Counted from the stretch's first letter, positions 1-63,422 are shown. The stretch is 64,000 bases of DNA from an uncultured virus (IMG/VR IMGVR_UViG_3300025154_000091) (IMGVR_UViG_3300025154_000091), one strand, 5' to 3'. Numbers and translations are program-made. The notes: generated by a model not told the origin, from the sequence alone.

Positions 1-92
1 TTGCGCTCTCTAGATAGGAACTCATCTACTACGACCTCAACCATTCCGAAGAAGTCTTCACACAATTGCTTACGCTCAGTATCAGTTAAGAT
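1..92 (-). CDS. 5' fragment of the sigma-like gene (copy 1, cut by window edge)
   Basis: Identical to the 5' end of 61863-62393. Confidence 0.8.
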   Translation of the reverse strand, partial: MLTDTERKQLCEDFFGMVEVVVDEFLSRER

Positions 93-106
93 ATTGTTCT
101 CCTTAT
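1..106. repeat. Exact 106-bp copy of 62302-62407 (genome wrap-around point; unit length about 62,301 bp)
   Basis: Direct comparison; first mismatch at 107 vs 62408. Confidence 0.95.
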
Positions 107-232
107 CTTTAGCACTACATATTCAGAAGATCCTGTCACAAAGTCGAACAAGTAATTATCTAATGGTTGATGACAGAAGTGCAGGTTGCCATAACCTCGT
201 CCCCCAACATATAAGATATAATAGAATCTCAT
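86..232 (-). CDS. LK[VI]RR-tail mini-protein, 48 aa
   Basis: Hand translation: MRFYYILYVGG...EYVVLKIRRTIS*. Confidence 0.75.
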   Translation of the reverse strand: MRFYYILYVGGRGYGNLHFCHQPLDNYLFDFVTGSSEYVVLKIRRTIS

Positions 233-267
233 ATCACTAAGGCTCTATTTATTATATAGTATCTCAT
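229..267 (-). CDS. 12-codon coupling mini-ORF containing a promoter-like motif
   Basis: MRYYIINRALVI*; overlaps both neighbours; conserved at 62679-62717. Confidence 0.45.
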   Translation of the reverse strand: MRYYIINRALVI

Positions 268-428
268 CACCTGATCTTCCTCCGAATCTTTAAGATAGTA
301 TAGTACTCCCTGCCCTCAGGAGATTTAATATAATGAGTAGTTGCAGTATCACTATAACGAGACCTATATAGGAACATATTCCTAGACCTATATCTATTTG
401 CTTCAGTCTCTAACAAGAATAAGTTCAT
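267..428 (-). CDS. LK[VI]RR-tail mini-protein, 53 aa
   Basis: MNLFLLETE...YYTILKIRRKIR*; TGATG overlap with polymerase stop. Confidence 0.75.
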   Translation of the reverse strand: MNLFLLETEANRYRSRNMFLYRSRYSDTATTHYIKSPEGREYYTILKIRRKIR

Positions 429-1513
429 CAATGTACCTCCGCCCAAGTCATTCCTACTTTCACATCAGCATCTATAGGGGTGATCAAGTTCAACTGACCT
501 TGTACCATATTGGCCCCAAGCTTAATGATTCTCGATGCTTCCTCCACATGTTCTGGCAGGCACCTGTAAGCATATTCATCATGATAGCAGATCATTTGTC
601 TACAGTATAAGCCAGTACCTTCAAGCATCTTATTAACATTAATACCCCACATCTTAAAGATGAGAGCAGCAGTCCCTTGGATGGCAGAGTTTAGCAACTT
701 ATACTCCTGCCTAATCTGCATCTTCCTTCCATCAAGACCTACAATGTACTTGTTCTTTTTATAAAACTTAGTTAGATAGTCTACAAGCATCTTCACTCCG
801 AGATTACCAGACCAAAAAGCTTCAATATATACTTCAGCTTCTTCTATTGTGCATCCAAGAATACTAGCAAGCTTAGGTGCTCTAGCTCCAAAATAGATTG
901 CATATTGAAAAGATTTCGCAATGTTTCTAGTACTTTGGATGAGGTCGGCATTGTATTGATGGAGATCTGGAACAGAACTTATCACCCTCCAATATTCTCC
1001 ACCATCAAACAGAGATGCCCAATGTGCTGTGACTCTCGCCTCTATCTGAGCAAGATCAGCACCTATCATTATGTATGGTGGCCACACCCTAAAGAGTGAT
1101 CTCATCTCCTTGCCATAGATAACTTTAGGATCAGCTTTCGGTACGTTGCAAATCGCACCAGCGTGGGTTGTCCTACCTGTTGGAGTATTACATGGCATCC
1201 CTTCAGCAGCTACACGTCCATCATCTCTTACCTTAGAGAGTATACCTTTATTCTCAGGATCCTTTAGGTTCTCGATGGTTCTCCTTCTATGTACAAGGAC
1301 ATTCCTTCGAGCAACTAACTGACCTAGCTCACCTTTGATAGAGCTGAACGAATCTTCAGTGAGCTTCGGGGATGTTATCTCTTTAGTCTTCTTATTTATA
1401 TTCCACTGAGTAGGGATCCACCCTACTGATAATAGGTAGGATTTCACTTGTTCGTGGCTATTCAAATTCAGGTCCATGTATTTTATCTTACAATACGGAC
1501 CTCTTATATTCAT
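428..1513 (-). CDS. DNA polymerase family A, polymerase half of a split gene
   Basis: Motif A ADLAQIEAR, motif B AKSFQYAIYFG, motif C YHDE. Confidence 0.95.
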   Translation of the reverse strand: MNIRGPYCKIKYMDLNLNSHEQVKSYLLSVGWIPTQWNINKKTKEITSPKLTEDSFSSIKGELGQLVARRNVLVHRRRTIENLKDPENKGILSKVRDDGRVAAEGMPCNTPTGRTTHAGAICNVPKADPKVIYGKEMRSLFRVWPPYIMIGADLAQIEARVTAHWASLFDGGEYWRVISSVPDLHQYNADLIQSTRNIAKSFQYAIYFGARAPKLASILGCTIEEAEVYIEAFWSGNLGVKMLVDYLTKFYKKNKYIVGLDGRKMQIRQEYKLLNSAIQGTAALIFKMWGINVNKMLEGTGLYCRQMICYHDEYAYRCLPEHVEEASRIIKLGANMVQGQLNLITPIDADVKVGMTWAEVH

Positions 1514-2074
1514 TTATAATTCTCCTTTTAAATATGAAATTGCAGATGATAAAATAGAAACATCATCATTAGCATGACCTACTAGTACGTTGCAGCTATT
1601 ACATAACAACCCTCTTATATTACCAGTTAGATGGTTGTGATCAACAGAATAACTTCTTTTAGAGTCTGGAGTAACTAGATCACATCCACAAATAGCACAA
1701 GCACCTTTCTGAATATTCATCATATCCATTAGAGAATCTTCAGATACTTTATACTTATACTTTAATTGGTAAAATCTCGACCTATCTGGGTTATCCTTCT
1801 GATATCTTGCATTTGCTTCGCTCAGCTTCTCTTTATTAGATTGATAATAAAGTTTATGATACTCCTTAGACTTATCCTTATTACTCTCCCTATACTCTTT
1901 TTGCTTTTCTAAAACCTTACCCTTGTTAGCATCCCTATAAGCCTTCACCCTCATAGATTCACAAGATTTGCATATACATCTCAGAACATCTTTCCCACTC
2001 TTACTAGTACGGACTTTATAAAAGTACTCTGATGTTGCTGGATATTCTGATCCACATTTTTTACAAATCTTCAT
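1514..2074 (-). CDS. Endonuclease VII-type HNH homing endonuclease
   Basis: CAICG...VDHNHLTGNIRGLLCNSCN; N-terminal CxxC. Confidence 0.9.
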   Translation of the reverse strand: MKICKKCGSEYPATSEYFYKVRTSKSGKDVLRCICKSCESMRVKAYRDANKGKVLEKQKEYRESNKDKSKEYHKLYYQSNKEKLSEANARYQKDNPDRSRFYQLKYKYKVSEDSLMDMMNIQKGACAICGCDLVTPDSKRSYSVDHNHLTGNIRGLLCNSCNVLVGHANDDVSILSSAISYLKGEL

Positions 2075-2115
2075 AGGTCCCTCCTAAAGGTTAAGTATGT
2101 AATGTTTTATTACAA

Positions 2116-2131
2116 CTATAACCTATATAGT
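2116..2131 (-). promoter_or_regulatory. ACTATATAG-N3-ATAG promoter-like motif upstream of the HNH gene
   Basis: ACTATATAGGTTATAG on the minus strand; motif recurs upstream of other transcription units. Confidence 0.65.
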
Positions 2132-2173
2132 TAATAGGAACCTGATCTTACAGTATGGTCCACGAATATTCAT
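2123..2173 (-). pseudogene. Remnant of the original polymerase 5' end
   Basis: MNIRGPYCKIRFLLTI*; first 10 aa identical to the polymerase start at 1513 but with different codons. Confidence 0.85.
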
Positions 2174-2176
2174 GTC

Positions 2177-2308
2177 CTATAAGGTTCTCCTCACTTTAAG
2201 TAGAGTATTCTGTCCGGGGAACTGTGCAGCTACACTACAATTAATAAGGATGGCTCTATTATGAGTAGTCCCACAACCATGCCACCCATGTCTTATGTAA
2301 AACTTCAT
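2177..2308 (-). CDS. LK[VI]RR-tail mini-protein, 43 aa
   Basis: MKFYIRHGW...HNRAIL...TLLKVRRTL*. Confidence 0.75.
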   Translation of the reverse strand: MKFYIRHGWHGCGTTHNRAILINCSVAAQFPGQNTLLKVRRTL

Positions 2309-2442
2309 AGTGTTCTCCTCACCTTTAGCACTATAAAGGTTGTTGGTGGAGGTCCGTAGTGTTCTGATAGAACTACAATGTTTCTATTGTATCTGCACAA
2401 CTGACTACAATTTTTCCACCCCTCTATACAGAAGACTCTCAT
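2305..2442 (-). CDS. LK[VI]RR-tail mini-protein, 45 aa
   Basis: MRVFCIEGW...YNRNIVV...IVLKVRRTL*. Confidence 0.75.
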   Translation of the reverse strand: MRVFCIEGWKNCSQLCRYNRNIVVLSEHYGPPPTTFIVLKVRRTL

Positions 2443-2627
2443 AGCACCCTCTTAACCTTTAAAAAGACTCCATGATTAGGGGCTATGATCCAACTCTTAT
2501 AGTGTACACTACTCTGATCTTCTGGGAACTTAATAAAATCCCTACAGAAACTATACATCCACTCGTTCCACCCAGGAGATAGTTCATGGGTTGTTTGATT
2601 ATACTCAAGTATCAGTAAGTATCTCAA
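2439..2627 (-). CDS. LK[VI]RR-tail mini-protein, 62 aa
   Basis: MRYLLILEY...VFLKVKRVL*. Confidence 0.75.
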   Translation of the reverse strand: MRYLLILEYNQTTHELSPGWNEWMYSFCRDFIKFPEDQSSVHYKSWIIAPNHGVFLKVKRVL

Positions 2628-3342
2628 TAGTTTCCTCTTGGTTTATCCACTTCTTTGTGGCTTCATTATATGTACCATCCTTCTTGTAAGGCATGGTCCC
2701 TTTCTCAATATTACCTACACCCTTTATCCTCATAGGACTCTTATCATACAAGAGTGTATCTAGCTGAGCAATTTCTTCATCTAATCGTACCAATAGATCC
2801 TTAGCCAACTCAACATCTATATCTACACCTTCAAGTTCTTGAGCTGCTCGATACATTGCGAAGTCTTGCTCTATGTTAAGAGATGTAATCCAGTTCCAAC
2901 TCTGGCAATACCTTTCTACTAGGTACTCATACACCATCTCGTTTATCTCAACATCCTCTGAGCACCTATGTAACATATCCTCAGAGAACACTGACCAATC
3001 CTCATGCACTGGTTTACTTCTTTTGAACTGCTCTCCGTATGACTCAAGAGAATGGCCCCCGAATCGTTCGGGGTTAAATAGCTTGGACATACAGAGAGTG
3101 TCCTTAAGCTTCTTGTGTGTGAATGTTGGATATAACTTCTTGATAGCAGGTATATCAAATCCACAGATGTTGTGACCGACCAACTGGTCAGCACTACTGA
3201 GAAGCTGAAGGCCCTCCTCTATTTGGTGTGGTCTAAACTTGAAGACCTCTTTGGTCTTGAGATCTTTAGCTACAATACAATGGATCTTAGTTATCTCATA
3301 GAGAAATCCATCTCCCTCAATATCTACAACGTATCTAGACAA
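2605..3342 (-). CDS. 3'-5' exonuclease half of the split family A DNA polymerase
   Basis: ExoI DIEGD, ExoII GHNICGFD, ExoIII-like RCSEDV; resembles T7 gp5 N-terminus. Confidence 0.92.
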   Translation of the reverse strand: MSRYVVDIEGDGFLYEITKIHCIVAKDLKTKEVFKFRPHQIEEGLQLLSSADQLVGHNICGFDIPAIKKLYPTFTHKKLKDTLCMSKLFNPERFGGHSLESYGEQFKRSKPVHEDWSVFSEDMLHRCSEDVEINEMVYEYLVERYCQSWNWITSLNIEQDFAMYRAAQELEGVDIDVELAKDLLVRLDEEIAQLDTLLYDKSPMRIKGVGNIEKGTMPYKKDGTYNEATKKWINQEETIEILTDT

Positions 3343-3472
3343 CTCTCCTCACCTTTAGGACTGTGTATCCCTCCTCAAATGTTAGGTAACAAACAGGACA
3401 ACCCATAGTAATTAATCTTCTACTATAACCAACACTCCAATAACAGTTCCCACGTAGAATCACGAAGACCAC
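3335..3472 (-). CDS. LK[VI]RR-tail mini-protein, 45 aa (GTG start)
   Basis: MVFVILRGNCYW...YSRRLI...YTVLKVRRVV*. Confidence 0.7.
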   Translation of the reverse strand: MVFVILRGNCYWSVGYSRRLITMGCPVCYLTFEEGYTVLKVRRVV

Positions 3473-3618
3473 TATAACTTTCTCTTAACCTTTAGGTTGA
3501 TATAATAGTCTCTCGGCTTTTTAAATTGTCTCCATATATAGAAACTTCTCACAGACATATCTCCCCATCCATAACCATCAGAATCTCTAACAGCTATAGT
3601 AAACCACACATGATTCAT
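3472..3618 (-). CDS. LK[VI]RR-tail mini-protein, 48 aa
   Basis: MNHVWFTIAV...YYINLKVKRKL*. Confidence 0.75.
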   Translation of the reverse strand: MNHVWFTIAVRDSDGYGWGDMSVRSFYIWRQFKKPRDYYINLKVKRKL

Positions 3619-3821
3619 CAATACCTCCGTCTTATTTGTAGCTCCTTCATCACCTCATAGGGAGGACTACTCACTCTCCAACGAATCTCATGAGGAGCGC
3701 CCTCCATCTCTATGGCTCTGAGATAATCAGCATTAGTATCCTCTCTAGCAAATGATCTACGATTTCTAGAGGTCCAGTCTGGGTCTTCCCTAAATGAATT
3801 ATACACAACCCAGAATCTCAC
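3618..3821 (-). CDS. LK[VI]RR-tail mini-protein, 67 aa
   Basis: MRFWVVY...RNRRSF...KELQIRRRY*. Confidence 0.75.
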   Translation of the reverse strand: MRFWVVYNSFREDPDWTSRNRRSFAREDTNADYLRAIEMEGAPHEIRWRVSSPPYEVMKELQIRRRY

Positions 3822-4048
3822 AGCCTCCTCCTGACCTTTAGAGGAATGAGTCTATCTACTGGTATGAATCCTCCAGATATCACGCCAAACCATTGAGCAA
3901 AGGATAACCCGTAGAATTCTGGAAGTTCATCATCTTCTTCATAGTCCTCTAGATCTATCTCCTCTTCCCTATAGAACATACCAGTCCATTGTTCAGGTGT
4001 AGCTGTTCCATAATCTAGATGCTTACATAGATAGAAATTAAAACTCAT
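3818..4048 (-). CDS. LK[VI]RR-tail mini-protein, 76 aa
   Basis: MSFNFYL...IPLKVRRRL*. Confidence 0.75.
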   Translation of the reverse strand: MSFNFYLCKHLDYGTATPEQWTGMFYREEEIDLEDYEEDDELPEFYGLSFAQWFGVISGGFIPVDRLIPLKVRRRL

Positions 4049-4730
4049 CGTCGCAGAACTCCTCCTCTAGTACTCCAGTTTCTTTATTGTACCTGAGAGG
4101 TATGTGTCCTGTGTTACCACCAAGTCTATCCTTTATGATAGATAATTTACACTTGTTCCTCTCTTCCAATGTGTCAGCTAACTGGTCCCTTGAGAGACCC
4201 CATAGCGCAGTAGAGTACTTCCATTGTGCCCTACTTCCCGAGAACTGTGAGCCATATACTTCACCACCAGCGCCATGATCCTTACCACTTGGAGGATTGT
4301 TCAAATGGTTAACACTAAAGAACGTCAGCCCCTGTTCTGTTCTAAACCTTCTCATATCTCTCATAACTTGACCCAAAGCCTGATTAGCTTCGGATGCAGA
4401 TAAATGTTCCACCAATGCAGATAGTGGGTCAATAAAGAATACCCTAATACCTTTGCTTGCAAAGTATCGTATATTATCCTTGACCTCTTCCCAATCCTCT
4501 GTGAGACCATCATAAAAATGAACCTTCCCCTCTAGAGTTGCACCTATTCTCCTCGCCTCCTCTACATCATAATCACAATCAGGTTTATGAATAGGCTTGT
4601 TCATTATGCTACCTATAATCTTCTTTAACGAGCCCTTTGCCTTCTCCTCTATATCAAATACAGCTATCTGCCTGTTGTGTACAAACATTAAGTGTTGTTG
4701 TATCTGCCTTACTAGTGTACTTTTACCTGT
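4038..4730 (-). CDS. Primase-helicase exon 2 (DnaB-like helicase)
   Basis: Starts TGKST (end of Walker A); FFIDPL Walker B; FSGS and KDR motifs. Confidence 0.92.
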   Translation of the reverse strand, partial: TGKSTLVRQIQQHLMFVHNRQIAVFDIEEKAKGSLKKIIGSIMNKPIHKPDCDYDVEEARRIGATLEGKVHFYDGLTEDWEEVKDNIRYFASKGIRVFFIDPLSALVEHLSASEANQALGQVMRDMRRFRTEQGLTFFSVNHLNNPPSGKDHGAGGEVYGSQFSGSRAQWKYSTALWGLSRDQLADTLEERNKCKLSIIKDRLGGNTGHIPLRYNKETGVLEEEFCDDEF

Positions 4731-4873
4731 CGCTTGTGTTACGAGGTGCTCGATTCCAGTACCTCTCTCAAGGTTTCCCATGAGGCCAGACTATATCATC
4801 ATCTTTTCAGATGCTATGCGCTTCGGACCCTCTTGAGTCCTACTCCCTCTCGGGATAGTCGTTACACTTTCTA

Positions 4874-5407
4874 CTACCAAGAGTATCTACAACTAACATG
4901 CTTCCAGTTTTGGCGACTTCTTATAGAGTAGTATAGCCTGAATGATAAGTTATCAAAAGAGCTAAGGATATCATCTCTACTAACCCTATTAGATATCATA
5001 TAACAAATAGTATCAACATCTTCATCTGACAGGATAGAGTTATGAATCTTCTCTCCCAGGCGAATGCGCCTTTTTCCAGATGCAAATGAATGGCATACAT
5101 TCTCGGAAGGAGATACCCACTCCAGATTAGAGACACAATTGTTACTCTTTATACCGTCTATATGATTAACCTCTTCTCCATCTTTATGATCTGGATTAAA
5201 AGTTTCCATAACTAATCTGTGAACTTGGTAAGTCTTCCTAAACCTCTCATACTGAAGAACAACAAGAAGATAACCCTGTCTATGCCTTCCAGGTTTTAAG
5301 ATTCTAGGAACTTTACCGTGGGTTGACATAACTCTTCCACAATCTGACACTTGATACTGGCCACCAAAACCTTCAACATGTTTCCAAACTTCCATCGCAT
5401 CCTCCAT
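4874..5407 (-). CDS. Intron-encoded NUMOD4-HNH homing endonuclease
   Basis: EVWKHVEGF..YQVSDCGRV; VHRLV; VNHIDGIKSNNCVSNLEW. Confidence 0.92.
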   Translation of the reverse strand: MEDAMEVWKHVEGFGGQYQVSDCGRVMSTHGKVPRILKPGRHRQGYLLVVLQYERFRKTYQVHRLVMETFNPDHKDGEEVNHIDGIKSNNCVSNLEWVSPSENVCHSFASGKRRIRLGEKIHNSILSDEDVDTICYMISNRVSRDDILSSFDNLSFRLYYSIRSRQNWKHVSCRYSW

Positions 5408-5431
5408 AGATTATTTGTATATTACATTCAA

Positions 5432-5447
5432 CTATAATCTATATAGT
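5432..5447 (-). promoter_or_regulatory. ACTATATAG-N3-ATAG motif upstream of the intron ORF
   Basis: ACTATATAGATTATAG on the minus strand. Confidence 0.65.
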
Positions 5448-5562
5448 ATGCAACACTCTGATAATAGCTTAGCTCGGGATTACCATATCTTAATAGACTT
5501 AGGCTTCCCCCGAATTCACATAGTTATTCGATGAGCATCTCTACTCAAAGGGGCAATTATTT

Positions 5563-6492
5563 ACCCGGTCCAGCCCCTATCGAAATTATCTCTCCCTCTT
5601 CCTCCTTAAGGCCATACGTAAGCTTCGTAAGCCTCTCGAAGGGGTAAGATAAGCCCCACGGTACAGGTTTAATAGTATCGGCCAAGATATCACCAACAGA
5701 TATAATATTACTAGGGCGATATTCTCTAGCGTTGAAGTAAGCATTGATGAACTCCTTCTGCTTTCCTTTTACCAGCATATCACTGGCATCTTTCTCTGAG
5801 ATGACCAAGACCCTAGCCCTCTCACCTATGACAGGTGCATACTTAGCCACAGCTGCCCTGCCAGCAGCATCCATATCAGTAGCTATGATGATCTCTTCAA
5901 AGCCCTTGAAGAACTCAAGACTCTCAGTCACCGTAGCCAATGAGGACTCTTCACCCCTTGGTAGAGACACTACTGCAGGTTCTACCTCAGGATACCTAGT
6001 CTTCAGCATCTCATAGGCAGCACACATATCCTCTTCACCACCAGTGATAAGCAACTTTCTGCCTGACATAGGACAGCAGTGGAGTCCTGATAGGTCAGGT
6101 ATCTTTCCCTTCTGATCTCCAATACTTGAGAACTTCTTAGGAAGTAATCTCTTCTTATATCCTATAAACTTACCGAGATGTGTCTCAGGGTAATAGATAG
6201 CTACTGGAATACCTGTAGCCTCTGAGAGCTCTGTTCGGATCTTGAAGTGCTTGTGTGTCTCAGCACTTATAAGTCTATCGGGATTACCGTAATAAGGAAG
6301 TCTCTTTATTTCATCTAACTCCATCTCTCCTCCTTTTTTAGAAGCATCACACACCTCTCCGTCTCTTTCGTAGTATGGCGGATGATAAGGTTTTAGGCAA
6401 GCTCGTGTTACACCGTCCTTCATCAACCATAGATGATCAGAGTTTGAATCATGCCCGAGCGACTTGCACACCTTACATTGGCGATTCTTCAT
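5563..6492 (-). CDS. Primase-helicase exon 1 (zinc-binding and TOPRIM primase)
   Basis: N-terminal CxxC; ITGGEED and DMD TOPRIM motifs; ends GAGPG; spliced product is 540 aa. Confidence 0.92.
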
Positions 6493-7120
6493 ATGATTCT
6501 AAATACTTAGCAGCTTTAAGGCAAGTATCTTTAGAGTCTTTTAAGAACCCTATACCAGAGTTACAAGAATTACATAACAACCCTCGGGCTTTTCCAGTAT
6601 CATGGTCATGATCTATAGAGAACATCTCAATAAAATCTATACCACATATAGCACATTTCCCAACTTGAGAGATTATCATACCCTCTAACCACTGCTCAGT
6701 TATATTGAAGATCTTAAGTCTTCGTCTGAAGAGAGTTTCGTTATAACCTTCGGTATCCTTATAAACTTCTCTATTTCTTATTATTCTATCTGCATTCTCC
6801 TCTCTATAGATAGCATCGTACTCTCTTTTCCATTCTGCATAACCCGGATCTGATCTCTTCCAAAGCGCATGGCACCTCTTAGAACAAAACTTAGTTCTTT
6901 TAGGCCCCCTCTTAGCTTGTATAATAACCTCTCCGCATATACAACATATCCCAGTTGTAGCTGTCTTGCATAGATCAACACACTCCTCTCCAGCTCTTCT
7001 AGCAAACTCAGCCTCTTCCTTATCCTTATAAGATCCTAGGTTTACACAACCAAGACTAGATCTTATAGATGCTTTCCATCTTTTCCTTGCCTTATTCCAA
7101 TGAACACCTTTCATAATCAT
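6473..7120 (-). CDS. AP2-like plus endonuclease VII-type homing endonuclease
   Basis: KGVHWNKARKRWKA..NLGSY (AP2-like); IDHDHDTGKARGLLCNSCN. Confidence 0.88.
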   Translation of the reverse strand: MIMKGVHWNKARKRWKASIRSSLGCVNLGSYKDKEEAEFARRAGEECVDLCKTATTGICCICGEVIIQAKRGPKRTKFCSKRCHALWKRSDPGYAEWKREYDAIYREENADRIIRNREVYKDTEGYNETLFRRRLKIFNITEQWLEGMIISQVGKCAICGIDFIEMFSIDHDHDTGKARGLLCNSCNSGIGFLKDSKDTCLKAAKYLESYEESPM

Positions 7121-7156
7121 CCCTCCAGTTGAATTAAAATATAAACCCTTTAAGGT

Positions 7157-7165
7157 CTATATAGT
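7157..7165 (-). promoter_or_regulatory. ACTATATAG motif upstream of the endonuclease
   Basis: About 37 nt before the ORF start. Confidence 0.55.
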
Positions 7166-7200
7166 AATCACGTTACTGAAGTGATAATTATGGGGATCAG

Positions 7201-7245
7201 TTACACATAAAACCCCCTACATTCAGGACATGGGCGATTGCTCAC
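7201..7245 (-). pseudogene. Remnant of the original primase 5' end
   Basis: GTG start, SNRPCPECRG.. vs current MKNRQCKVCK; SD AAGGAG upstream. Confidence 0.7.
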
Positions 7246-7370
7246 ATTCTCCTTTTCACCTTCAATAGTATAATATTAGGACTACCATTTATTCCACAAA
7301 TAATCCTCCTATGATTTCCAGGATACCACCAATCATTTAAGTGGTTGGATAAGATACAAAACCTTTTCAT
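7242..7370 (-). CDS. LK[VI]RR-tail mini-protein, 42 aa
   Basis: MKRFCIL...WWYPGNHRRII...ILLKVKRRM*. Confidence 0.75.
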   Translation of the reverse strand: MKRFCILSNHLNDWWYPGNHRRIICGINGSPNIILLKVKRRM

Positions 7371-7503
7371 AGATGCCTCTTAATCTTCAGTGCAATATAT
7401 GCCCTACACCCTTAGCCGAATAGCACCTCAACCTTCTACTCAAAGAGGGTGGCCAGTATCCGTCAGCTATATCCTTAGCCCATAGTATACAGAAGTTACT
7501 CAT
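7367..7503 (-). pseudogene. Frameshifted LK[VI]RR-tail mini-gene
   Basis: MSNFCILW...SLSRRL, tail YIALKIKRHL* in another frame; 137 nt, one short of in-frame. Confidence 0.65.
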
Positions 7504-7646
7504 AGCCTTTTCTTAACCTTTAGGATTATATACATCTCAGTATCATCTGAGATATCTTCATCCTCAAACATCACCCTTCTGGAATTGTAACTCCACCACC
7601 TTGAAGGTTCTGATGCACACCAAAGGATGATGAATAGGCCACTCAA
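7500..7646 (-). CDS. LK[VI]RR-tail mini-protein, 48 aa (TTG start)
   Basis: MSGLFIILW...WWSYNSRRV...YIILKVKKRL*. Confidence 0.7.
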   Translation of the reverse strand: MSGLFIILWCASEPSRWWSYNSRRVMFEDEDISDDTEMYIILKVKKRL

Positions 7647-7822
7647 TATTTTCTCCTAATCTTCAATTCCTTTAGGTTCAAGTACAGGCTAGAGTGTCTT
7701 CCATCACAGAAGGAATATGCAATATCACTTCTCGGATCCTTCTGCCTATAGATCATACCAATCTTCCAGTACAAGAAATCCATTAGATCAGCACCTGCTC
7801 TGTACCTATAGAAGAATCTCAC
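7643..7822 (-). CDS. LK[VI]RR-tail mini-protein, 59 aa (GTG start; track ORF over-extended)
   Basis: MRFFYRY...KELKIRRKY*. Confidence 0.75.
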   Translation of the reverse strand: MRFFYRYRAGADLMDFLYWKIGMIYRQKDPRSDIAYSFCDGRHSSLYLNLKELKIRRKY

Positions 7823-7956
7823 AACTTCCTCCTCACTCTTAAGCGTGTACAGTTTGTAATGTCTGTACTCACCTGGTATGCCCTCATGCATCTGCACATT
7901 GACCAATGCCAGAAGGTAGGGTTATCTACATCATATAAGAAGCAATAGATTCTCAT
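7819..7956 (-). CDS. LK[VI]RR-tail mini-protein, 45 aa
   Basis: MRIYCFLYDVDNPTFW...TRLRVRRKL*. Confidence 0.75.
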   Translation of the reverse strand: MRIYCFLYDVDNPTFWHWSMCRCMRAYQVSTDITNCTRLRVRRKL

Positions 7957-8102
7957 AGCTTCCTCTTAATTTTTAAGAACCTATAGTAGCATCTATCACC
8001 ATCTCTTATAGTCGTAGTATGTTTATAATGATCTATGTTTCTTCCATAGAACGGTATCCAAAATTCAGGATCATCTATATCATACAATAAAACAAAGTAC
8101 AT
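7953..8102 (-). CDS. LK[VI]RR-tail mini-protein, 49 aa
   Basis: MYFVLLYDIDDPEFW...YRFLKIKRKL*. Confidence 0.75.
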   Translation of the reverse strand: MYFVLLYDIDDPEFWIPFYGRNIDHYKHTTTIRDGDRCYYRFLKIKRKL

Positions 8103-8132
8103 ATCATCTCCACCACTATAGGTTCTTAAGAA

Positions 8133-9068
8133 CTACTGCATCATATGTCCGTAGTCTCTCCAGGCCTCGTCATCAGCCTGAGTTTTGAGTGCATCTTCGG
8201 CTGCCTTACGAGACGCTGCTGCTTTCTCCCTATTAGCTTTGATATTAGCTTGGGTGAGGTAAGCTGAGATAGTTGTCTTCATCCTGTTATGGATAGCTCC
8301 AGCTCTCTCAAGAGACTTCTTACACTCATCACAAATGATCATGATATCATCAGCAACACTATCCTGATAGGCGTTCATATCTTTGATCTGATGAATCTCA
8401 TTACAGTACTCACACATATCCCTTGTGTAGGCATTGATACTCCATGCTTCGGTGTTCGGCCTAGTTACTGGGAGGTTGTATGTCTTAGCACTATAGTACG
8501 TTTGAGTATAAATCTTCCTCTCCTTATAGGAATCATTACTCATCCAACACTTACCAAACCAATGACCCTTCTTCTTATTGTATATAGTGCAGTCACCCTC
8601 GATGTTCAGTACTGCCAGCTTAGATGCACCTATGAAGTCTTCAATAAGAGTAGCAATTGCACTATTGTACATCCACCCTTCAGGAAGTTCCCGAAGGATC
8701 TCTCTCTTGAACATTCGAGTATCTGACATAGTAGCATGTCGGGATACGCCACTGATGATTCCATTATGAATAAACACAGTATCATTATCAATCATAAAGG
8801 GATGACAGTTCGCTATATCCTTCTCACCATGAGTCTTGATTCTGAAGTGGATCAAGAATGGAGAGTCATTAGCTATACGAGTAGCCCTAAGGTACTGCTT
8901 ATAGAACGGCTCGAAGCTCATGTTCTTGTACATCTTAATCCTTTTGACACCCAGATGATCAGTATTAATATACGCAAAGCCAGCCCCATCCGGGTTATTA
9001 TTAAAGCAATTCTTCAACAGAACTTCACTAAGGAGCTCACCAGCTGGCTTGAAAATCGCAATACACAT
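8133..9068 (-). CDS. Class II (Ntn) glutamine amidotransferase
   Basis: N-terminal MC, NPDGAG, HFRIKTHG, NCHPF, HNG, SDT. Confidence 0.9.
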   Translation of the reverse strand: MCIAIFKPAGELLSEVLLKNCFNNNPDGAGFAYINTDHLGVKRIKMYKNMSFEPFYKQYLRATRIANDSPFLIHFRIKTHGEKDIANCHPFMIDNDTVFIHNGIISGVSRHATMSDTRMFKREILRELPEGWMYNSAIATLIEDFIGASKLAVLNIEGDCTIYNKKKGHWFGKCWMSNDSYKERKIYTQTYYSAKTYNLPVTRPNTEAWSINAYTRDMCEYCNEIHQIKDMNAYQDSVADDIMIICDECKKSLERAGAIHNRMKTTISAYLTQANIKANREKAAASRKAAEDALKTQADDEAWRDYGHMMQ

Positions 9069-9069
9069 A

Positions 9070-9218
9070 TTATATTCTCCTCTTTATCTTTAGCACTTTA
9101 TAGTAACCAACTTCCGGTACACACCTTGAGCAGCAGAGGATGAACCATATATATACTCATCCTCTTCTCCACTCCTGTCTCTAAAAGCAAAGTGTGTATG
9201 ATGTTTAATATCTTCCAT
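9070..9218 (-). pseudogene. Probable frameshifted LK[VI]RR-tail mini-gene
   Basis: Tail YYKVLKIKRRI* is one base out of frame with ATG at 9218 (149 nt). Confidence 0.5.
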
Positions 9219-9232
9219 ACAGTTATAACAGC

Positions 9233-11176
9233 TTATCGTCCATTATACTTCTGGACGAATGAGCTCCCATTAGGATAGATCTTGCTATTGCTCTCAATAA
9301 AATTCTTGAAGGCTGCGAGATCCTTAGAGAGATGGATAGGTACTTCCTTCTGGAAGGTGATCAAGGCATGAAGGAACTCTACCTTACTACGCAGCTCGAA
9401 CTCCTTAGTACAGCCAGCAAACAACCTGAACTCTACTGTGGTCCTGTTGGTCAGGTTGACCATGGCACGACGCTCAGTATTACCAGACTTACTATCCCTC
9501 AGGTGCTTAGAGGGTTTACTCTTCAGCTTAGCACAGTAACCATTGAAGCTACGACCAGCTATGTACGTGGTGAAGGTAGGGTTGGAGTGCAGAAAATTAA
9601 TAACCTTATACAGATGAACCTCAGAGATGAAAGAGTCGCGACCTATATGGATATGAAGGCCACAACTATCACTCTTCCTAATACCTTCAGGAAGAAGAGG
9701 ACCAAGATCCATTTTATGAAAGTACATCAGAGACATCGGTTGAGTGACAACCTCATATCCACTACCACTAATAGATCCATCACTCTTCGCTACAACTACT
9801 GTAGGGTCGTATACAGTGTACATCTCAGCCAATCTCTTATTCATCTTACTACTATCGGATGAGAACGTACATTCATTCTCAAACCCGAAGAAGATATTAC
9901 CACGCTTGATCTCCTTCTCCTTGTTATAGTTGAAGAAGACTCGAGGTTTATGACTATAGTTATAGATACCCATACCACCACACACCCTACAGTTGTGCCT
10001 CTCATCCTTAATCCTACCGCAACTGCTGCAGGAGTTGGTGACGTAAACCTTCTTGCAGATCTCGCACATATCTCCTGATCCAGAGGAGAGGGTGGAACAA
10101 CTGGAGCACTCCTTACCTGAAGCACACCGAGAGCACACTGTATGCACCCTCATAGTTCCTTTCACATACTTCTTAACCTTCGAGACACACTCCTTCTGGC
10201 AGCAATCGCAGGTGAAGAGAGTCTTTGTAGCACAGGAATCACACATAGTGTTCCTAACCATGCTTCCAGAGTCATCCAGATATTCTCGGAGCCTAATATG
10301 TGGGTGCTTGGTGTTACATACCGCGCAAGTCTCGAAAAAATCCCAACAACGAGGACAGTACTTCTTCGGAGATCCCTGATCTGCTGTGTAGCTATAGTTC
10401 TTACCACAATGCTCACACTGTTCGATCTCATAGAGCTTGAAGGCATTCTTCTTAGCCTCGAAGCATTCTTTACATACAGACTGTCCATACTTTCTGAAGA
10501 TACCAGCTCTGCGCATACCCTCAAGAGAATTGGCTGAGATGATATCATCTTTCTTCTTATAAGTGCTGCAACAACCACACAGCTTATAGTTCTTGGTAAG
10601 GCAGGTAGAACATATCTTCCTTCCATTAACATCTTTGATAGCATTGGAGGGCTTCTGAGTTCCACAATCCTCACAGACTGCAAAGTCAGTCATGCAGCTA
10701 CGACAATAGTGATCTCCGTTTCCAGTGTGAGTAGTCTCAGATGCAAGGACTGCATGCTGACAACCAGAACACACCTTCAGAAGTGCATAGCACCTCTCAC
10801 AATACGGACCAATCTCTACCTCAGGATAGTCCTCATTATAAAGGACAACGCGAAAGTTAGGATCGGTGATTTCAGCATGACAATTCAAACAAGGGCAGGG
10901 AGTAGGCATAGTAATAGTTTCCTTTTTGGTTAAGTAAGTGTATTCTCCGGGATAAACGTGCGCATCTGACCCATCAGTTCCGTAACATTGTATAACTTCA
11001 TCATCTTCAAGATTATAATCTTCATCTCCAATACCATCTCTCCAACCGTCGTCGTTCCAACTACACGGAACTATGTTCCTGACAATATCGAATTGGTATG
11101 GTGGGAAGTTGTATTCTCTACCAGATTCACCAACAATCAGTAGTATATCACCAAAATCTGGTATTCTATTACTCAT
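9233..11176 (-). CDS. Putative amidoligase (COOH-NH2 ligase family) with a long CxxC array
   Basis: FGFENE, DGS..GYEVVT, CGLHIH, TVEFR; about 18 CxxC motifs upstream. Confidence 0.85.
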   Translation of the reverse strand: MSNRIPDFGDILLIVGESGREYNFPPYQFDIVRNIVPCSWNDDGWRDGIGDEDYNLEDDEVIQCYGTDGSDAHVYPGEYTYLTKKETITMPTPCPCLNCHAEITDPNFRVVLYNEDYPEVEIGPYCERCYALLKVCSGCQHAVLASETTHTGNGDHYCRSCMTDFAVCEDCGTQKPSNAIKDVNGRKICSTCLTKNYKLCGCCSTYKKKDDIISANSLEGMRRAGIFRKYGQSVCKECFEAKKNAFKLYEIEQCEHCGKNYSYTADQGSPKKYCPRCWDFFETCAVCNTKHPHIRLREYLDDSGSMVRNTMCDSCATKTLFTCDCCQKECVSKVKKYVKGTMRVHTVCSRCASGKECSSCSTLSSGSGDMCEICKKVYVTNSCSSCGRIKDERHNCRVCGGMGIYNYSHKPRVFFNYNKEKEIKRGNIFFGFENECTFSSDSSKMNKRLAEMYTVYDPTVVVAKSDGSISGSGYEVVTQPMSLMYFHKMDLGPLLPEGIRKSDSCGLHIHIGRDSFISEVHLYKVINFLHSNPTFTTYIAGRSFNGYCAKLKSKPSKHLRDSKSGNTERRAMVNLTNRTTVEFRLFAGCTKEFELRSKVEFLHALITFQKEVPIHLSKDLAAFKNFIESNSKIYPNGSSFVQKYNGR

Positions 11177-11430
11177 AGCACTCTCTTCACTCTCAGAGGT
11201 ACAGCATTATCTAATCGGATTCCCCAATCGTTGTGGTGATCTGAGTATCTGTAGAATCTTAATGAAGATACTGTGCTAAAACCAGGATCATCATCATCGT
11301 CATCACCGTCTAATAGATGAGATACACACACCCTTCTAGATAAATAATTCATATTCTCCACCCATCTCCACCCTTCAGGGGAATTAGGAGTAGATGAATC
11401 TTTCCAAGAGTTTCCTATGAAATAGAGCAC
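11173..11430 (-). CDS. LK[VI]RR-tail mini-protein, 85 aa
   Basis: YFIGNSW...MNYLSRRV...VPLRVKRVL*. Confidence 0.75.
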   Translation of the reverse strand: MLYFIGNSWKDSSTPNSPEGWRWVENMNYLSRRVCVSHLLDGDDDDDDPGFSTVSSLRFYRYSDHHNDWGIRLDNAVPLRVKRVL

Positions 11431-11431
11431 A

Positions 11432-11647
11432 TTATATTCTCCTTTTTAATGTTAGTTTTATAGCCTCATCATAATCTACATACCAACTTCCGGATCTCTC
11501 TACAAAAGACACCTCATCGTCATCTAGATAAGAGGTAATCACCGCTCTAGATAAGTGGTTCATGCCTGGAACCCAAGATCCATCGTAGTAATCTTCTAGA
11601 TCTTCCTCCAACCAAGAGTTCCCTATAAAGTACTGTAGGGAGTCCAT
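11432..11647 (-). CDS. LK[VI]RR-tail mini-protein, 71 aa; tandem paralog of the previous gene
   Basis: YFIGNSW...MNHLSRAV...IKLTLKRRI*. Confidence 0.75.
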   Translation of the reverse strand: MDSLQYFIGNSWLEEDLEDYYDGSWVPGMNHLSRAVITSYLDDDEVSFVERSGSWYVDYDEAIKLTLKRRI

Positions 11648-11832
11648 TATATTACCCTAGCCAATCTCCCCTTATCGGTGATTACTTCAAGAGGTTTAAA
11701 CATCTTAGCCACCTCACCGTTCATGAGGTACAAAGTTCCAACAACCCCATGTACAGAGTCCTCAGCCGCTTTAGTCACTCCCTCCATCATTCTCTCAGAG
11801 AAGATGAGGTACTCACAGTACTTACAGTTCAT
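11647..11832 (-). CDS. Hypothetical protein
   Basis: Coupled ORF lacking the family tail. Confidence 0.6.
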   Translation of the reverse strand: MNCKYCEYLIFSERMMEGVTKAAEDSVHGVVGTLYLMNGEVAKMFKPLEVITDKGRLARVI

Positions 11833-12011
11833 ATCTTTCTCCTAATTTTAAAGATTGTAAATCTATAATGTTCATAGCCCTCTGATTGTACCCTACCACT
11901 GGACAGATTAAGTAATCTCACCTCTCTACTATCTCTATCGATAAAACAGAAGCTTTGTATGTAGAGATCTAAGGTGGTATCACAACTTTTGTATATAGCT
12001 ATCTCCCACAC
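11829..12011 (-). CDS. LK[VI]RR-tail mini-protein, 60 aa
   Basis: MWEIAIYK...FCFI...TIFKIRRKI*. Confidence 0.75.
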   Translation of the reverse strand: MWEIAIYKSCDTTLDLYIQSFCFIDRDSREVRLLNLSSGRVQSEGYEHYRFTIFKIRRKI

Positions 12012-12220
12012 TATAGCACCCTCCTCACCTTCAAGATAGTATAGAATCTCTCTAGGTCGTTCTTAGGGTAGATAGTATAATTCTCACAGAGTCCGTCTCC
12101 CGGTCTGTGATCCCAACCTCTAAACTTAACTTCAAGATTTTCTGTATTTATTAGGCAGAAGCACCCTTCAAAAATGTCAGTAGTACCTACACCGTACTTG
12201 TAGAAACTGAACTCCCACAT
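12011..12220 (-). CDS. LK[VI]RR-tail mini-protein, 69 aa; tandem paralog of the previous gene
   Basis: MWEFSFYK...FCLI...TILKVRRVL*. Confidence 0.75.
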   Translation of the reverse strand: MWEFSFYKYGVGTTDIFEGCFCLINTENLEVKFRGWDHRPGDGLCENYTIYPKNDLERFYTILKVRRVL

Positions 12221-14353: not shown

Positions 14354-14917
14354 ATGGATGACCAAACTAAAAAAGAGAAAGCAGCTGCTTATTATAAAAC
14401 TTATAATGAGGTTCATAAGGAAGAAATAGCTGCACGTAGAAAGGTTTATAGAGAGGTTAATAGGGAGAAAATTTTAGAGAGTAAGAAATCATACAGAGAA
14501 TACAATAAGGAAGAAGTAGCTGCTAGAAAGAAAGAGTATAGGAGATTGAATAAAGAGAAGGTTGCTGAGGCGAGTAAAAAGTATCGTTTATCTAACCCTG
14601 AAAAGGTAAAAGCTTGGGAAAAAGAGTGGAGAGCTATCCCTACTAATGTTGTAAAATCTAGAGCTGGACAGATTAAAAGTAGATACGGTATTAGTATGGA
14701 AGATTTATCTAATATGCTTGACGAACAAAAAGGGTGCTGCAAGGTTTGTGGAGATAGTTTAATCTATCCAGACTCGAAAGTGGGGTATAGGATTGACCAT
14801 TGCCACACTACAGGAAAGGTTAGAGGCCTCCTTTGTCACAATTGCAACATAGCTCTAGGGCATCTTAAAGATAATATAGACACCCTAGAGCGTATGATTG
14901 ACTATCTCAAGGCTTAG
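14354..14917 (+). CDS. Endonuclease VII-type HNH endonuclease, antisense to its neighbours
   Basis: About 15-aa basic helical repeats; IDHCHTTGKVRGLLCHNCN; SD AAGGAG. Confidence 0.9.
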   Translation: MDDQTKKEKAAAYYKTYNEVHKEEIAARRKVYREVNREKILESKKSYREYNKEEVAARKKEYRRLNKEKVAEASKKYRLSNPEKVKAWEKEWRAIPTNVVKSRAGQIKSRYGISMEDLSNMLDEQKGCCKVCGDSLIYPDSKVGYRIDHCHTTGKVRGLLCHNCNIALGHLKDNIDTLERMIDYLKA

Positions 14918-19088: not shown

Positions 19089-20493
19089 GATGACTCAGGC
19101 TCAGTTCGATGACTTCTTAGTGATGGCAGCTAATGATCATGTCTTCGGAATTGAAACACTGTTTTCAGTTACACTAACAGAACAACAGAGAAAGCTAGTA
19201 AGAGACTCCAGACCCCAGGCAGCACGTGTAGCTGTCTCATCTTGTACAGGCTCTGGTAAGTCAGCAGTACTAAGTATGATGACCTTCATCTTCTTAATGG
19301 TGCTGCCAGACTGTAGGATCCTAATCACAGCACCTTCTAGTAACCACCTTGAACGAGTCTTTCGATCTGAACTCGAGAAGTGGTACAGGAAGATGCCGAT
19401 TGATATTCAGAACATGTTCGATTTGACTCTTCGTAAGATTGAATACAAGACTAAGACCTTTGTTAATTTTGCATCTCTTGTTACTGCCAGCGTTGATAGC
19501 GTAGAGAATCTGGCAGGTGGTCATGCTGAGAATTATATCATCATGGCTGATGAGGCTTCAGGTATCTCTGAGGAGGCTTTCGATATTCTACTAGGAACAC
19601 TCTCCACCGGTAAGGGTGGTAGGTTCCTTCAGGTGTCGAACCCTCAGAGAGCATCAGGTAGGTTCTTCGAGATCTTTCAAAGAGATCTTGGAACCTGGAC
19701 TAAGATTTACTTCTCCGCTTATGACAGTCCTAATGTCAACAATGAGTGGATAGATGAGATGAAAGAAACCTACGGGGATGATAGTGATATCTTCCGTATG
19801 CGTGTTCTTGGTCAGTTTCCTAGAGTTGGTGTATCTCAATTCATCTCAGCTGATGATGTTGAGGATGCTGTAAGGAACAGGCTGGAGTATAAAGACTACA
19901 TAAACTTCCCGAAGCTAATGGGTGTGGATGTAGCTCGATTTGGTGATGACCTTACAGCCATAGTCATCAGGCAGGGTCCGAAGATTATTGACATTAAGAC
20001 CTATAGGGGTCTTGATACAATGAGTGTTGCAGCTAAGGTTTCAGAGATTAACTCCTACCACCAGTGTGTGAATATCTTCATTGACTCTATTGGAGTAGGT
20101 GCTGGGACAGCAGACAGGCTTAGACAACTAGGACTACCAGTTAAAGATGTTGTAGTAAGTAACAAGAGTACAGACCCCAACACCTACTCGAACCTAAGGG
20201 CACAGCTTTGGGGGAAACTTCGTGAATGGCTTTCTATGGGAGGAGCCGACATCCCTATAGAGGCCACAGATAAAGAGGCGAACCTAGCAGCACAACTCAC
20301 CTCTATGGAGTATGGATACAACAATAAGATGCAAATCCAACTCCTATCTAAAAAGGATCTTAAAAAGATGGGACACGCCTCTCCAGATATAGCTGACGCA
20401 TTATCGTTTACATTTGCTGAAGCTATCTTCGAGCACAGACCTAGGAATAGGTTTAGAAAAGAGATACGAAGGGGTAAATTCTTGTGGGTATAA
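19081..20493 (+). CDS. terL: Terminase large subunit
   Basis: Walker A GSGKS, Walker B ADEA, nuclease GVDVARFGDD, SPDIADA. Confidence 0.95.
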   Translation: MAKMTQAQFDDFLVMAANDHVFGIETLFSVTLTEQQRKLVRDSRPQAARVAVSSCTGSGKSAVLSMMTFIFLMVLPDCRILITAPSSNHLERVFRSELEKWYRKMPIDIQNMFDLTLRKIEYKTKTFVNFASLVTASVDSVENLAGGHAENYIIMADEASGISEEAFDILLGTLSTGKGGRFLQVSNPQRASGRFFEIFQRDLGTWTKIYFSAYDSPNVNNEWIDEMKETYGDDSDIFRMRVLGQFPRVGVSQFISADDVEDAVRNRLEYKDYINFPKLMGVDVARFGDDLTAIVIRQGPKIIDIKTYRGLDTMSVAAKVSEINSYHQCVNIFIDSIGVGAGTADRLRQLGLPVKDVVVSNKSTDPNTYSNLRAQLWGKLREWLSMGGADIPIEATDKEANLAAQLTSMEYGYNNKMQIQLLSKKDLKKMGHASPDIADALSFTFAEAIFEHRPRNRFRKEIRRGKFLWV

Positions 20494-20945
20494 AAGTGTG
20501 CAGTAAGTGTAAAGAACCTCTTGAAGATGCTTCTGAGTTCTACAACAAGTGTGCATCTAGTAAGGACGGCTTACAGCCAATGTGCAGAATCTGCCAAGGA
20601 ATATTAAGCACTGTATATGGCAGAAAGAATTCAGAAAAGAGAAAGAGGTTTAGAAAAGATAATCCACATATAAAAAGATTCGACCACCTTAAGAGGAGGT
20701 ACAATACTGATATAGAAAGTATCTCTAATATAATGAATGAACAGAGGGGTATTTGTCCTATATGTGAGAAGTCTTTAGTGTATCCAGATTCGAGAATAAA
20801 CTATAGTATAGATCATAATCACAACACAGGGAAAGTCAGAGGTCTCCTGTGTGGAGATTGTAACAGAGCTTTAGGTATAATGAAAGAAGATAAGAAAGCT
20901 ATATTAGCTATGGTATCATACTTAGAGAAATACGAGGATACATAA
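20484..20945 (+). CDS. Endonuclease VII-type HNH endonuclease
   Basis: IDHNHNTGKVRGLLCGDCN. Confidence 0.9.
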   Translation: MGIKVCSKCKEPLEDASEFYNKCASSKDGLQPMCRICQGILSTVYGRKNSEKRKRFRKDNPHIKRFDHLKRRYNTDIESISNIMNEQRGICPICEKSLVYPDSRINYSIDHNHNTGKVRGLLCGDCNRALGIMKEDKKAILAMVSYLEKYEDT

Positions 20946-54182: not shown

Positions 54183-54756
54183 TTATATGCTCCGAGATTT
54201 TCCTACACATATCTATAAAATCTTCTTGACTCATATCTTGTTTCATTATATTTATACGCTTATCTACAAATTGTATATTAGATTTAACATACCCGACATT
54301 AGAATCTATCCTATCTACCGAAGCACTTCCTCTGGGTTTTGTCACATCAGAGTATTGCACCTCCGAGAAGCACAACTCAACACCACTTAGGGCGCATTTA
54401 CCATCTTGCTTCACCCACTGCTCCTCTAAATCTTCTATAGAAATAGAACACTCTAATACCCTACCTCTATTCAATGTATTGCGTATTTTGGCAAGCACTG
54501 AGTGAGGAACCACATTAACACCTTTCCAATGAGGGCTGCTACTTCCCCTTTTAGATTCTCCATTACACTTCCTACAAGACCTAGGAGAGTTCTTTCCAAA
54601 CAACGTAGAGGGCTGTATAAATCTTTTAAATCCGCACTTACATTCTACCTCCCACATTTGATATCCTGTAGGTTCAACAATCTTCTCCGTACTAAGTATA
54701 GTCCAGTCGTGAACTATACTACCACAACTAGTCTGTATATCATATTTTCCATTCAA
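54175..54756 (-). CDS. HNH-like endonuclease
   Basis: CALSG..SVDRIDSNVGYVKSNIQFV..IN.MK. Confidence 0.8.
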   Translation of the reverse strand: MNGKYDIQTSCGSIVHDWTILSTEKIVEPTGYQMWEVECKCGFKRFIQPSTLFGKNSPRSCRKCNGESKRGSSSPHWKGVNVVPHSVLAKIRNTLNRGRVLECSISIEDLEEQWVKQDGKCALSGVELCFSEVQYSDVTKPRGSASVDRIDSNVGYVKSNIQFVDKRINIMKQDMSQEDFIDMCRKISEHINE

Positions 54757-62393: not shown

Positions 62394-62536
62394 ATTGTTC
62401 TCCTTATTTTTAGCATTGTATACCTCTTATGATTCTTCTTAACAAAGATCTGTAGATGGTTGTCTAGACGTTGATGACAGAATTTCATATTGTGCCTGTT
62501 CTCTCCACCTATGTATAAGATGTAACAGAATCTCAT
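62387..62536 (-). CDS. LK[VI]RR-tail mini-protein, 49 aa (ortholog of 86-232)
   Basis: MRFCYILYIGG...YTMLKIRRTIS*. Confidence 0.75.
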   Translation of the reverse strand: MRFCYILYIGGENRHNMKFCHQRLDNHLQIFVKKNHKRYTMLKIRRTIS

Positions 62537-62682: not shown

Positions 62683-62717
62683 ATCATTAAGACTCTATTT
62701 ATTATATAGTAACTCAT
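62679..62717 (-). CDS. 12-codon coupling mini-ORF (copy 2)
   Basis: MSYYIINRVLMI*. Confidence 0.45.
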   Translation of the reverse strand: MSYYIINRVLMI

Positions 62718-63360: not shown

Positions 63361-63399
63361 TTGAGTTTAGATTATAATACATTAGAGTATCCTTACGAA

Positions 63400-63415: not shown

Positions 63416-63422
63416 GTGATGA

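Follow-up and report, generated by a model that had tools for sequence, protein, structure and literature searches.

A probable free-standing homing-endonuclease cassette carrying a foreign gene start in the DNA polymerase gene of an uncultured groundwater phage

In fungal mitochondria, elements known as mORFs form gene hybrids, as in atp6 of Allomyces macrogynus (as cited) and in atp6, atp9, cox2 and nad3 of Glomus (PMC3630166). These elements encode a LAGLIDADG or GIY-YIG endonuclease outside any intron, lie inside a coding gene and bring in a foreign copy of its 3' end. Among T4-type phages, intronless homing relies on seg and mob genes, optional nuclease genes beside essential replication genes, which the accessible text of a review tabulates as intergenic and as cutting at a distance (PMC2988022). 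Aeh1 mobE sits inside nrdA and splits that gene (PMC7344957). The DHHRN family is defined by a CX2-4C ... D-H-x-H ... R ... CX2C-N motif, and the accessible text of PMC6083498 presents one studied homing member; the genome of F-CphI, which belongs to this family, is protected by a psbA intron (collaborative homing). The mitochondria of Tremella fuciformis harbor 'introns with N-terminal duplication', kilobase-sized mobile elements, several of them non-splicing, that carry and exchange a foreign piece of the host gene (PMC7315562). Our search of accessible, mostly open literature, which included passages of PMC10055350, PMC2988022, PMC2993671, PMC7344957 and PMC12724721, found no phage for which the layout reported below is described. 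The accessible text of the review of T4 elements contains no wording of duplication (PMC2988022).

The stretch of DNA analysed here, the window, comprises 64,000 nt (about 64 kb) from an uncultured virus (IMG/VR IMGVR_UViG_3300025154_000091) and represents a podovirus-like phage genome with its replication genes on the - strand (Table 1). Neither its polymerase nor its nuclease was matched at 60% identity or more in a tblastn search against 50,697 cultured-phage records. Four public runs contain the stretch, all of them groundwater metagenomes from a single study; all carriers and most of the empty alleles may derive from one sampling campaign. The window is a composite of two strains, as its end (62765-64000; 1,236 nt) is 100% identical to the empty-allele contig L005 and 74% identical to the window's own polymerase copy (1-1005). 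Small - strand ORFs occupy the gaps between replication genes and differ between strains; nineteen ORFs of 42-87 aa (between 86-12220 and 62387-62956) nearly all end in an L-K-V/I-R/K-R/K-like motif, found at 19 ORF ends on the - strand and at 0 on the + strand, apparently because its codons double as the SD of the next gene, and the relatives are alike in this respect. A tandem 21-nt repeat (28382-28552, +) codes for ATTQAGI units within a 477-aa ORF.

Table 1. Positions of the two cassettes, their parts and related features (window coordinates unless a contig is named).
Feature	Position	Strand	Description	Basis
Polymerase-domain gene	428..1513	-	family A, intact, 361 aa	PF00476, E 3.5e-34
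Second window-specific polymerase tract	1115..1198	-	codons 106-133; possible site of a distant cut or of immunity	84 nt with 10 window-only sites (0-2 in each relative)
Foreign replacement polymerase 5' end	1415..1513	-	codons 1-33	divergence break, window-only sites, tree
Nuclease ORF	1514..2074	-	186 aa, Endo VII motif (DHHRN), C-terminal; putative homing endonuclease	PF02945, E 1.1e-21
Polymerase SD	1522..1526	-	AGGAG, 8 nt before the ATG, within the last codons of the nuclease	read from the sequence
Cassette leader	2075..2142	-	68 nt: anti-SD arm, promoter-like motif, nuclease SD AGGAGG (2080-2085)	
Probable core of a phage-specific (late?) promoter	2123..2131	-	ACTATATAG	
Orphaned native polymerase 5' end (remnant)	2143..2173	-	31 nt: codons 1-10 plus one base	match to empty relatives
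Exonuclease domain	2605-3342	-	separate gene	
Second cassette	6330..7245	-	same build, in the primase gene; right edge approximate	
Primase cassette, replacement N-terminus	from 6492	-		
Primase cassette, nuclease ORF	6473-7120	-	Endo VII motif	
Primase cassette, promoter-like motif	7157-7165	-		
Primase cassette, remnant	from 7245	-	MSNRPCPEC	
Copies of ACTATATAG	2123, 5439, 7157, 14227, 14312, 18091, 31681, 42510, 63407			
Replication genes		-	primase-helicase, separate exonuclease-domain and polymerase-domain genes, SSB, sigma factor, ribonucleotide reductase	
Interruption of the polymerase frame in relatives	L009 4627; L010 4633-4971; L011 947-1212; L012 4521-5378			

The cassette comprises 728 nt placed after base 31 of the gene for the polymerase domain of a phage PolA, and it contains a phage promoter motif, a hairpin that would hide a ribosome-binding site, an intact nuclease ORF with an Endo VII (DHHRN) motif and a foreign 5' end of 99 nt. 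The preliminary description of this DNA had drawn attention to two copies of the peptide MNIRGPYCKI that differ in six codons. Both copies are present (2144-2173 and 1484-1513, - strand; 7 of 30 nt differ), and no other exact 10-aa repeat exists in the 64 kb translated in six frames, if one tandem-repeat gene and the overlap of the two-strain ends are set aside. A stop had been placed directly behind the upstream copy, which is not the case: the remnant continues with RFLLTI and reads into the cassette as a 16-aa peptide, with its stop at codon 17 (2123-2125). It retains its native SD inside an upstream 43-aa ORF, and the empty relative L109 has the same ORF at the same spacing to the ATG. The polymerase SD is supplied by the element, as had been proposed, and is encoded by the final codons of the nuclease, whose stop abuts the polymerase ATG. 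The replacement is not confined to the ten codons first noticed; it spans 33 codons, and because these carry their own SD and join the native gene in frame at about codon 34, the predicted polymerase remains whole. Its gene is as long as those of L005 and L006, two empty relatives.

The first codon of the polymerase-domain gene does not correspond to the start of a full-length PolA. We considered the cassette as the cause of the split between exonuclease and polymerase and rejected it, since the exonuclease gene is separate throughout the phage family, including the cassette-free starts, and the split is thus older than the cassette. In several relatives the polymerase frame is broken at the same place, at about codon 206 (after ..QYAL / ..IYAL), by a putative intron (Table 1); many database proteins of 202-235 aa span just 57% of the polymerase query, which fits an interruption at that codon.

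All five close relatives (L005/L002, L006, L009, L109 and L136; 81-91% aa identity) are nuclease-free and have a single start; the presence of both copies in such relatives, which the preliminary description had named as the observation that would refute it, was not seen. The same description had expected such relatives to begin with the codons of the remnant, and this was borne out. The 31 nt of the remnant are identical in L005 (= L002) and L009 (31/31), nearly so in L109 (30/31), and match at 26/31 in L006 and at 24/31 in L136, where the first codon is a placeholder; the working copy matches the remnant at 24/31. A wider screen covered 159 loci; after 111 had been left out (duplicates, or start motif unrecognised), 48 distinct 5' regions remained. 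Thirty-two of these had a free start (8 of the 32 reach less than 700 nt upstream), and a nuclease with a duplicate was present only in the window's own strain (L004). The empty allele was also recovered as a joint 1456-2143 in both of the runs examined (X1 and X2, of four listed), at depths of 4.45 and 5.43, where the cassette allele had 16.5 and 9.47. The cognate site is thus optionally occupied, both among the close relatives (nuclease absent in 5/5) and within the samples (empty allele in 2/2 runs).

A second carrier of the polymerase cassette was not found among 15 nuclease loci in viral contigs (one being the own strain) or among 27 proteins (one being the nuclease itself), and a degenerate pattern of the 10 codons gave four stretches on three contigs, which correspond to two empty relatives and the own strain. 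The nearest relatives of the nuclease are at most 53% identical over part of their length, the best-scoring match being 40% identical. The observations that bear on lateral transfer of the polymerase cassette are this restriction to one carrier and the low GC3 of its nuclease, 0.26, where the six host genes for which GC3 was determined have 0.39-0.47.

A sister cassette lies at the start of the primase gene. In the empty relative L002 (903-), the primase begins MSNRHCPEC without a nuclease, the body of the window's primase is 92% identical to it, and run X2 contains an empty joint across 6326-7217. Another phage, L179 (2350-3330), holds the same cassette at 674/723 nt identity (93%), with the same left edge and its own remnant, MNKACPEC. 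The surroundings of the two are far more diverged: upstream DNA is 70-72% and the helicase, exonuclease and polymerase genes are 77-80% identical. Lateral movement of the primase cassette is indicated because 93% identity is retained between phages whose neighbouring genes are 70-80% identical, and we regard this comparison as good evidence for the mobility of such cassettes and for the remnant being the recipient's own. Both carriers share a left edge at the CPEC codons, and all three nuclease-bearing alleles lack this motif (CKVC, CPIC, CPVC). A third locus, L181 (1207-2677), has a different nuclease at the primase start and a replaced N-terminus, with no visible remnant. When duplicated ends were scored at 11 Endo VII loci from five records (L195 gave no row), only the polymerase cassette stood out clearly (72); the primase cassettes scored 28 and 25, near the background of 15-27, and hence rest on the DNA comparison with L002. 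These comparisons show that the native polymerase gene is interrupted after base 31, that empty alleles exist, one of them in the same samples, and that the sister cassette is common to two diverged phages.

Three further nuclease ORFs occur in the window (14354-14917, 20484-20945 and 54175-54756; two with an Endo VII motif, one before ribonucleotide reductase), and that at 20484 sits between terminase and portal. No duplicated gene ends were seen by eye at 14354, 20484 or 54175-54756. In the co-occurring strain, an HNH ORF (window 62878-63423, -; L006 5086-5631) follows the polymerase. The polymerase of that strain ends GMTWADVH and the HNH ORF ends GKNWAEVH; the HNH ORF overlaps the next gene as the polymerase does in the nuclease-free L112 and in the window's first strain. 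This arrangement is possibly a mirror image, at the 3' end, of the gene-end swap. HNH proteins often end in a motif similar to GKNWAEVH, a caveat for this comparison.

The polymerase-cassette ORF had been called an HNH gene. A nuclease is indeed present, with an Endo VII motif (PF02945, DHHRN type) and not a classical HNH motif: the classical signature (a central Asn between two His, HNH_3-type) is absent and PF02945 is the sole match, whereas the ORF at 4874-5407, which lies within an intron, matched HNH_3. All the defining residues of the DHHRN motif are found, and C126/C129, D145, H146, H148, R154, C158/C161 and N162 are invariant in 16/16 aligned sequences. The PF02945 match covers residues 104-183 of 186, and this C-terminal placement assigns the protein, by position, to the endonuclease clade and not to the resolvase clade. 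Profile matches include Hpy99I (E 4.9e-18) and T4 Endo VII (E 6.9e-12). The fold model used (pLDDT 91.9; a single-sequence fold with pLDDT 43 was set aside), compared with the beta-beta-alpha-metal fold of these two enzymes in view, gave Hpy99I (E 1.0e-3) and T4 Endo VII (4.5e-3) as top Foldseek rows, weak matches with none under 0.001. The ORF would not be needed as a resolvase, because the phage also has a phrog_945 endonuclease (59487-60053) and four Endo VII-motif paralogues. By the sequence criteria set out in the accessible text of PMC6083498, it is a putative free-standing DHHRN homing endonuclease.

The element had been credited with a promoter-like motif. A phage-wide motif, ACTATATAG, is present, and it is not a sigma-70 consensus; when 1300-2400 was scanned for sigma-70 promoters, 4 sites were found where 5.3 were expected, and the spacer or leader contained none of them. 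The window holds 10 copies of ACTATATAG against 1.94 expected, a number reached in 0 of 100 shuffles, and the motif is found 33-58 nt before the start codon used by five nuclease ORFs as well as ahead of + strand structural genes. We infer that it serves as a promoter. The phage has its own sigma factor gene (61863-62366), for which ACTATATAG is a candidate promoter core. The leader is predicted to fold (region 2060-2200, z -2.64; 0 of 200 shuffles as stable), and the probability that the nuclease SD is unpaired is 0.20 in a read-through transcript against 0.46-0.53 if the transcript starts after the motif. In the leader of the primase cassette the corresponding values are 0.11 and 0.45-0.60. 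The stand-alone ORF at 14354 is unlike the cassette leaders, its SD being unpaired at 0.92.

Taken together, we consider it probable that the insertion is a free-standing, non-splicing homing-endonuclease cassette, which cuts the empty gene start near codons 10-11, swaps the start of its target gene and carries a foreign start that lacks the site. During co-infection, the nuclease would cut the empty allele within the first 33 or so codons, most likely across the junction of codons 10 and 11. Repair would draw on the short conserved gene start as homology on the left and on the gene body on the right, the cassette would be copied in, and the foreign start would restore the protein. With the site broken by the insertion in the remnant and altered in the foreign start, the carrier would be immune. 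The remnant would derive from the recipient at each invasion, which is our proposed reason for its identity at 31/31 to a co-occurring empty allele that is 24% different over the polymerase gene. The nuclease would probably be made late, its ribosome-binding site being closed by pairing in read-through mRNA but accessible once transcription starts at the ACTATATAG promoter. As for its origin, a nuclease gene just upstream of the polymerase start of a distant relative was probably recombined in together with that start. Several observations weigh against this homing cassette with a cut site at the gene start. It is known from the single carrier, with nuclease kin at 53% identity or below, so that its own mobility is presumptive; the L181 locus is a primase carrier without a visible remnant; and a donor of codons 1-33 was not found among the 19 starts compared, the best being 71% identical in nt.

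The main rival is a free-standing homing endonuclease of the ordinary kind, in the style of T4 seg and mob, that cuts at a distance, for example in codons 106-133, in which case the remnant and the foreign start would be a scar of the first acquisition with no part in immunity. According to the accessible text of PMC2988022, free-standing T4 endonucleases have cut sites that lie hundreds to thousands of bases away from the genes encoding them, a point for the distant site and against a cut at codons 10-11. The polymerase gene is also mosaic elsewhere, at codons 106-133 and at about 261-310, so that the foreign 5' block could be a product of ordinary recombination; the first of these tracts lies in a conserved motif region (Table 1), and the new start shows no excess of synonymous change. 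However, no window-only tract in codons 1-168 is stronger than the 5' block (23 against 10 sites): among five sequences, 23 window-only sites fall in codons 1-33, where each relative has 0-2 of its own, and 5, 1, 10 and 5 in the next blocks. Moreover, the layout of remnant, nuclease and foreign start recurs at the primase start with a shared left edge at CPEC, a motif lost in the three nuclease-bearing alleles. We therefore regard the distant site as unlikely, if clearly the most credible of the alternatives.

The preliminary description went further and read the working start as a recoded duplicate, which, taken literally, would mean a start duplicated in place at insertion and then selected for synonymous changes that resist self-cleavage. 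The ten codons are indeed identical in protein, including a YCKI typical of the close clade, and yet six of them differ. The divergent block is, however, 99 and not 30 nt long. Compared with that of L109, the window's gene has 35 differences in the first 99 nt and 56 in the 405 nt that follow (Fisher p 3.4e-6). The break is best placed at nt 99, and an equally strong one arose in 3 of 1000 codon permutations. In codons 2-33 the working copy is just 64-71% identical to the close relatives and has 6-7 aa differences from them (25-26 of 32 residues identical); at codon 26, for instance, it has Y, as do most of the distant relatives, against F in all five close ones. The tree of codons 34-111 (14 sequences) groups the window with L109 (95/91), and that of codons 2-33 places it outside the clade of its four closest relatives (87/99). 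Holding the window with three close relatives was rejected at p-AU 0.044, modest support from a short tree with no starred branch; this modest support also weighs against the homing cassette with its foreign start. Special recoding of the new start was rejected on the synonymous differences: their fraction of 0.58-0.68 (14/24 to 17/25) sits on the family curve of 0.50-0.65 at 24-27 identical residues, and no special re-spelling is needed, because this divergence is ordinary for that amino acid distance in the family. The remnant is also nearly unmutated, which leaves little time for recoding in place. In-place recoding is accordingly very improbable, and the working 5' end is, on the available alignments, a borrowed foreign allele and not a demonstrable re-spelling.

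Even less credence is due to the readings as a domesticated resolvase or as a self-splicing intron that is degenerate or has escaped recognition. According to the accessible text of PMC6083498, some nucleases with an Endo VII motif do serve as resolvases and others are found within group I introns in polymerase genes of phages, and this phage has a group I intron nearby. That intron, at about 4727-5562 (-), carries a NUMOD4-HNH ORF (4874-5407) and interrupts the primase-helicase gene at its Walker A codons; it matches Rfam RF00028 at E 3.2e-4, short of the gathering score, and L002 has the 536-aa gene uninterrupted. The Rfam search that detected this helicase intron as a control gave no match at E up to 1 in 1400-2200, and the group I core motifs (GACTA/ATAGTC) are absent from the 68 non-coding nt, in agreement with the earlier claim of a non-splicing element. 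The nuclease is a separate ORF with its own start and stop, outside any intron or intein, and the downstream polymerase gene is complete without splicing. Against a resolvase, the ORF is missing from 5/5 close relatives and its motif is C-terminal, unlike in resolvases. Finally, that an assembly chimera set the gene start of one strain before the nuclease of another is barely conceivable: the window does join two strains at its ends and contigs break at the shared remnant, where bridging pieces are short (they extend some 30 letters into the remnant where the rule asks for 31), but 2/2 runs examined, which may be the window's source, give a mismatch-free contig that starts at 300, crosses the nuclease and reaches 2172 within the remnant, the depth of the upstream piece pairs with that of the cassette allele (15.6 with 16.5; 10.3 with 9.47) and not with that of the empty allele, and the separately deposited contig L001, possibly from the same source, is identical over 6,513 nt.

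A broader generalization is tentative, and we hold it to be slightly more doubtful than probable. Phages would have a distinct and general class of non-splicing mobile elements that enter essential genes within about ten codons of either end, in which the foreign end provides both repair and immunity and the displaced end is renewed in each recipient as a homology arm; the phage family studied here would employ such elements three times at one replisome (DHHRN at the polymerase and primase 5' ends, and HNH at the polymerase 3' end in the co-occurring strain). If true, distant phages would routinely trade protein termini, the zinc-binding domain of the primase among them, by means of such cassettes. 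Beside introns or inteins and gene splitting, the homing cassette would represent a third way for a homing endonuclease to reside inside an essential phage gene. It is unusually testable, with carrier and empty alleles from the same samples, boundaries mapped to the base and a sister cassette that points to lateral movement, and a candidate target of about 100 bp can be named for an uncharacterised DHHRN enzyme. For annotators, gene starts of this kind would be foreign, and short orphan starts upstream of nucleases would mark past invasions.

Compared with the systems described at the outset, the cassette appears to combine a principle already known from fungal mitochondria with features of T4 intronless homing. 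As in the mORFs, a non-intron endonuclease element lies inside a coding gene and brings a foreign copy of the gene end. The orphaned native end matches the empty relatives, and the carried end is foreign and in frame: displaced and carried ends agree with an empty relative at 91-98% and 64-81% in the Glomus mORFs and at 31/31 and 24/31 here (PMC3630166, accessible text). The phage cassette differs in acting at the 5' end with a DHHRN enzyme and in also supplying the ribosome-binding site. It would thus work like an mORF mirrored to the 5' end without being a member of that group, from which organelle, end and enzyme set it apart. With the T4-type elements it shares the optional nuclease gene at an essential replication gene, the lack of an intron, signals of the downstream gene inside the nuclease ORF, and a predicted hairpin over the ribosome-binding site with a putative internal promoter, a control that parallels T4 I-TevI, segB and Aeh1 mobE (PMC2988022, section 12); unlike them, it lies inside the gene. 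Where Aeh1 mobE splits nrdA, the cassette replaces a gene end (PMC7344957). Like F-CphI, its nuclease has all the defining residues and a C-terminal motif, is free-standing and is accompanied by another likely resolvase, although it is known here from its sequence, and protection would come from the swapped gene start in place of a psbA intron (PMC6083498). The elements of Tremella have a geometry unlike that of the cassette, the duplicated fragment being at the element's 5' end and homologous to the following exon; they share with it the carriage and exchange of a foreign piece of the host gene (PMC7315562).
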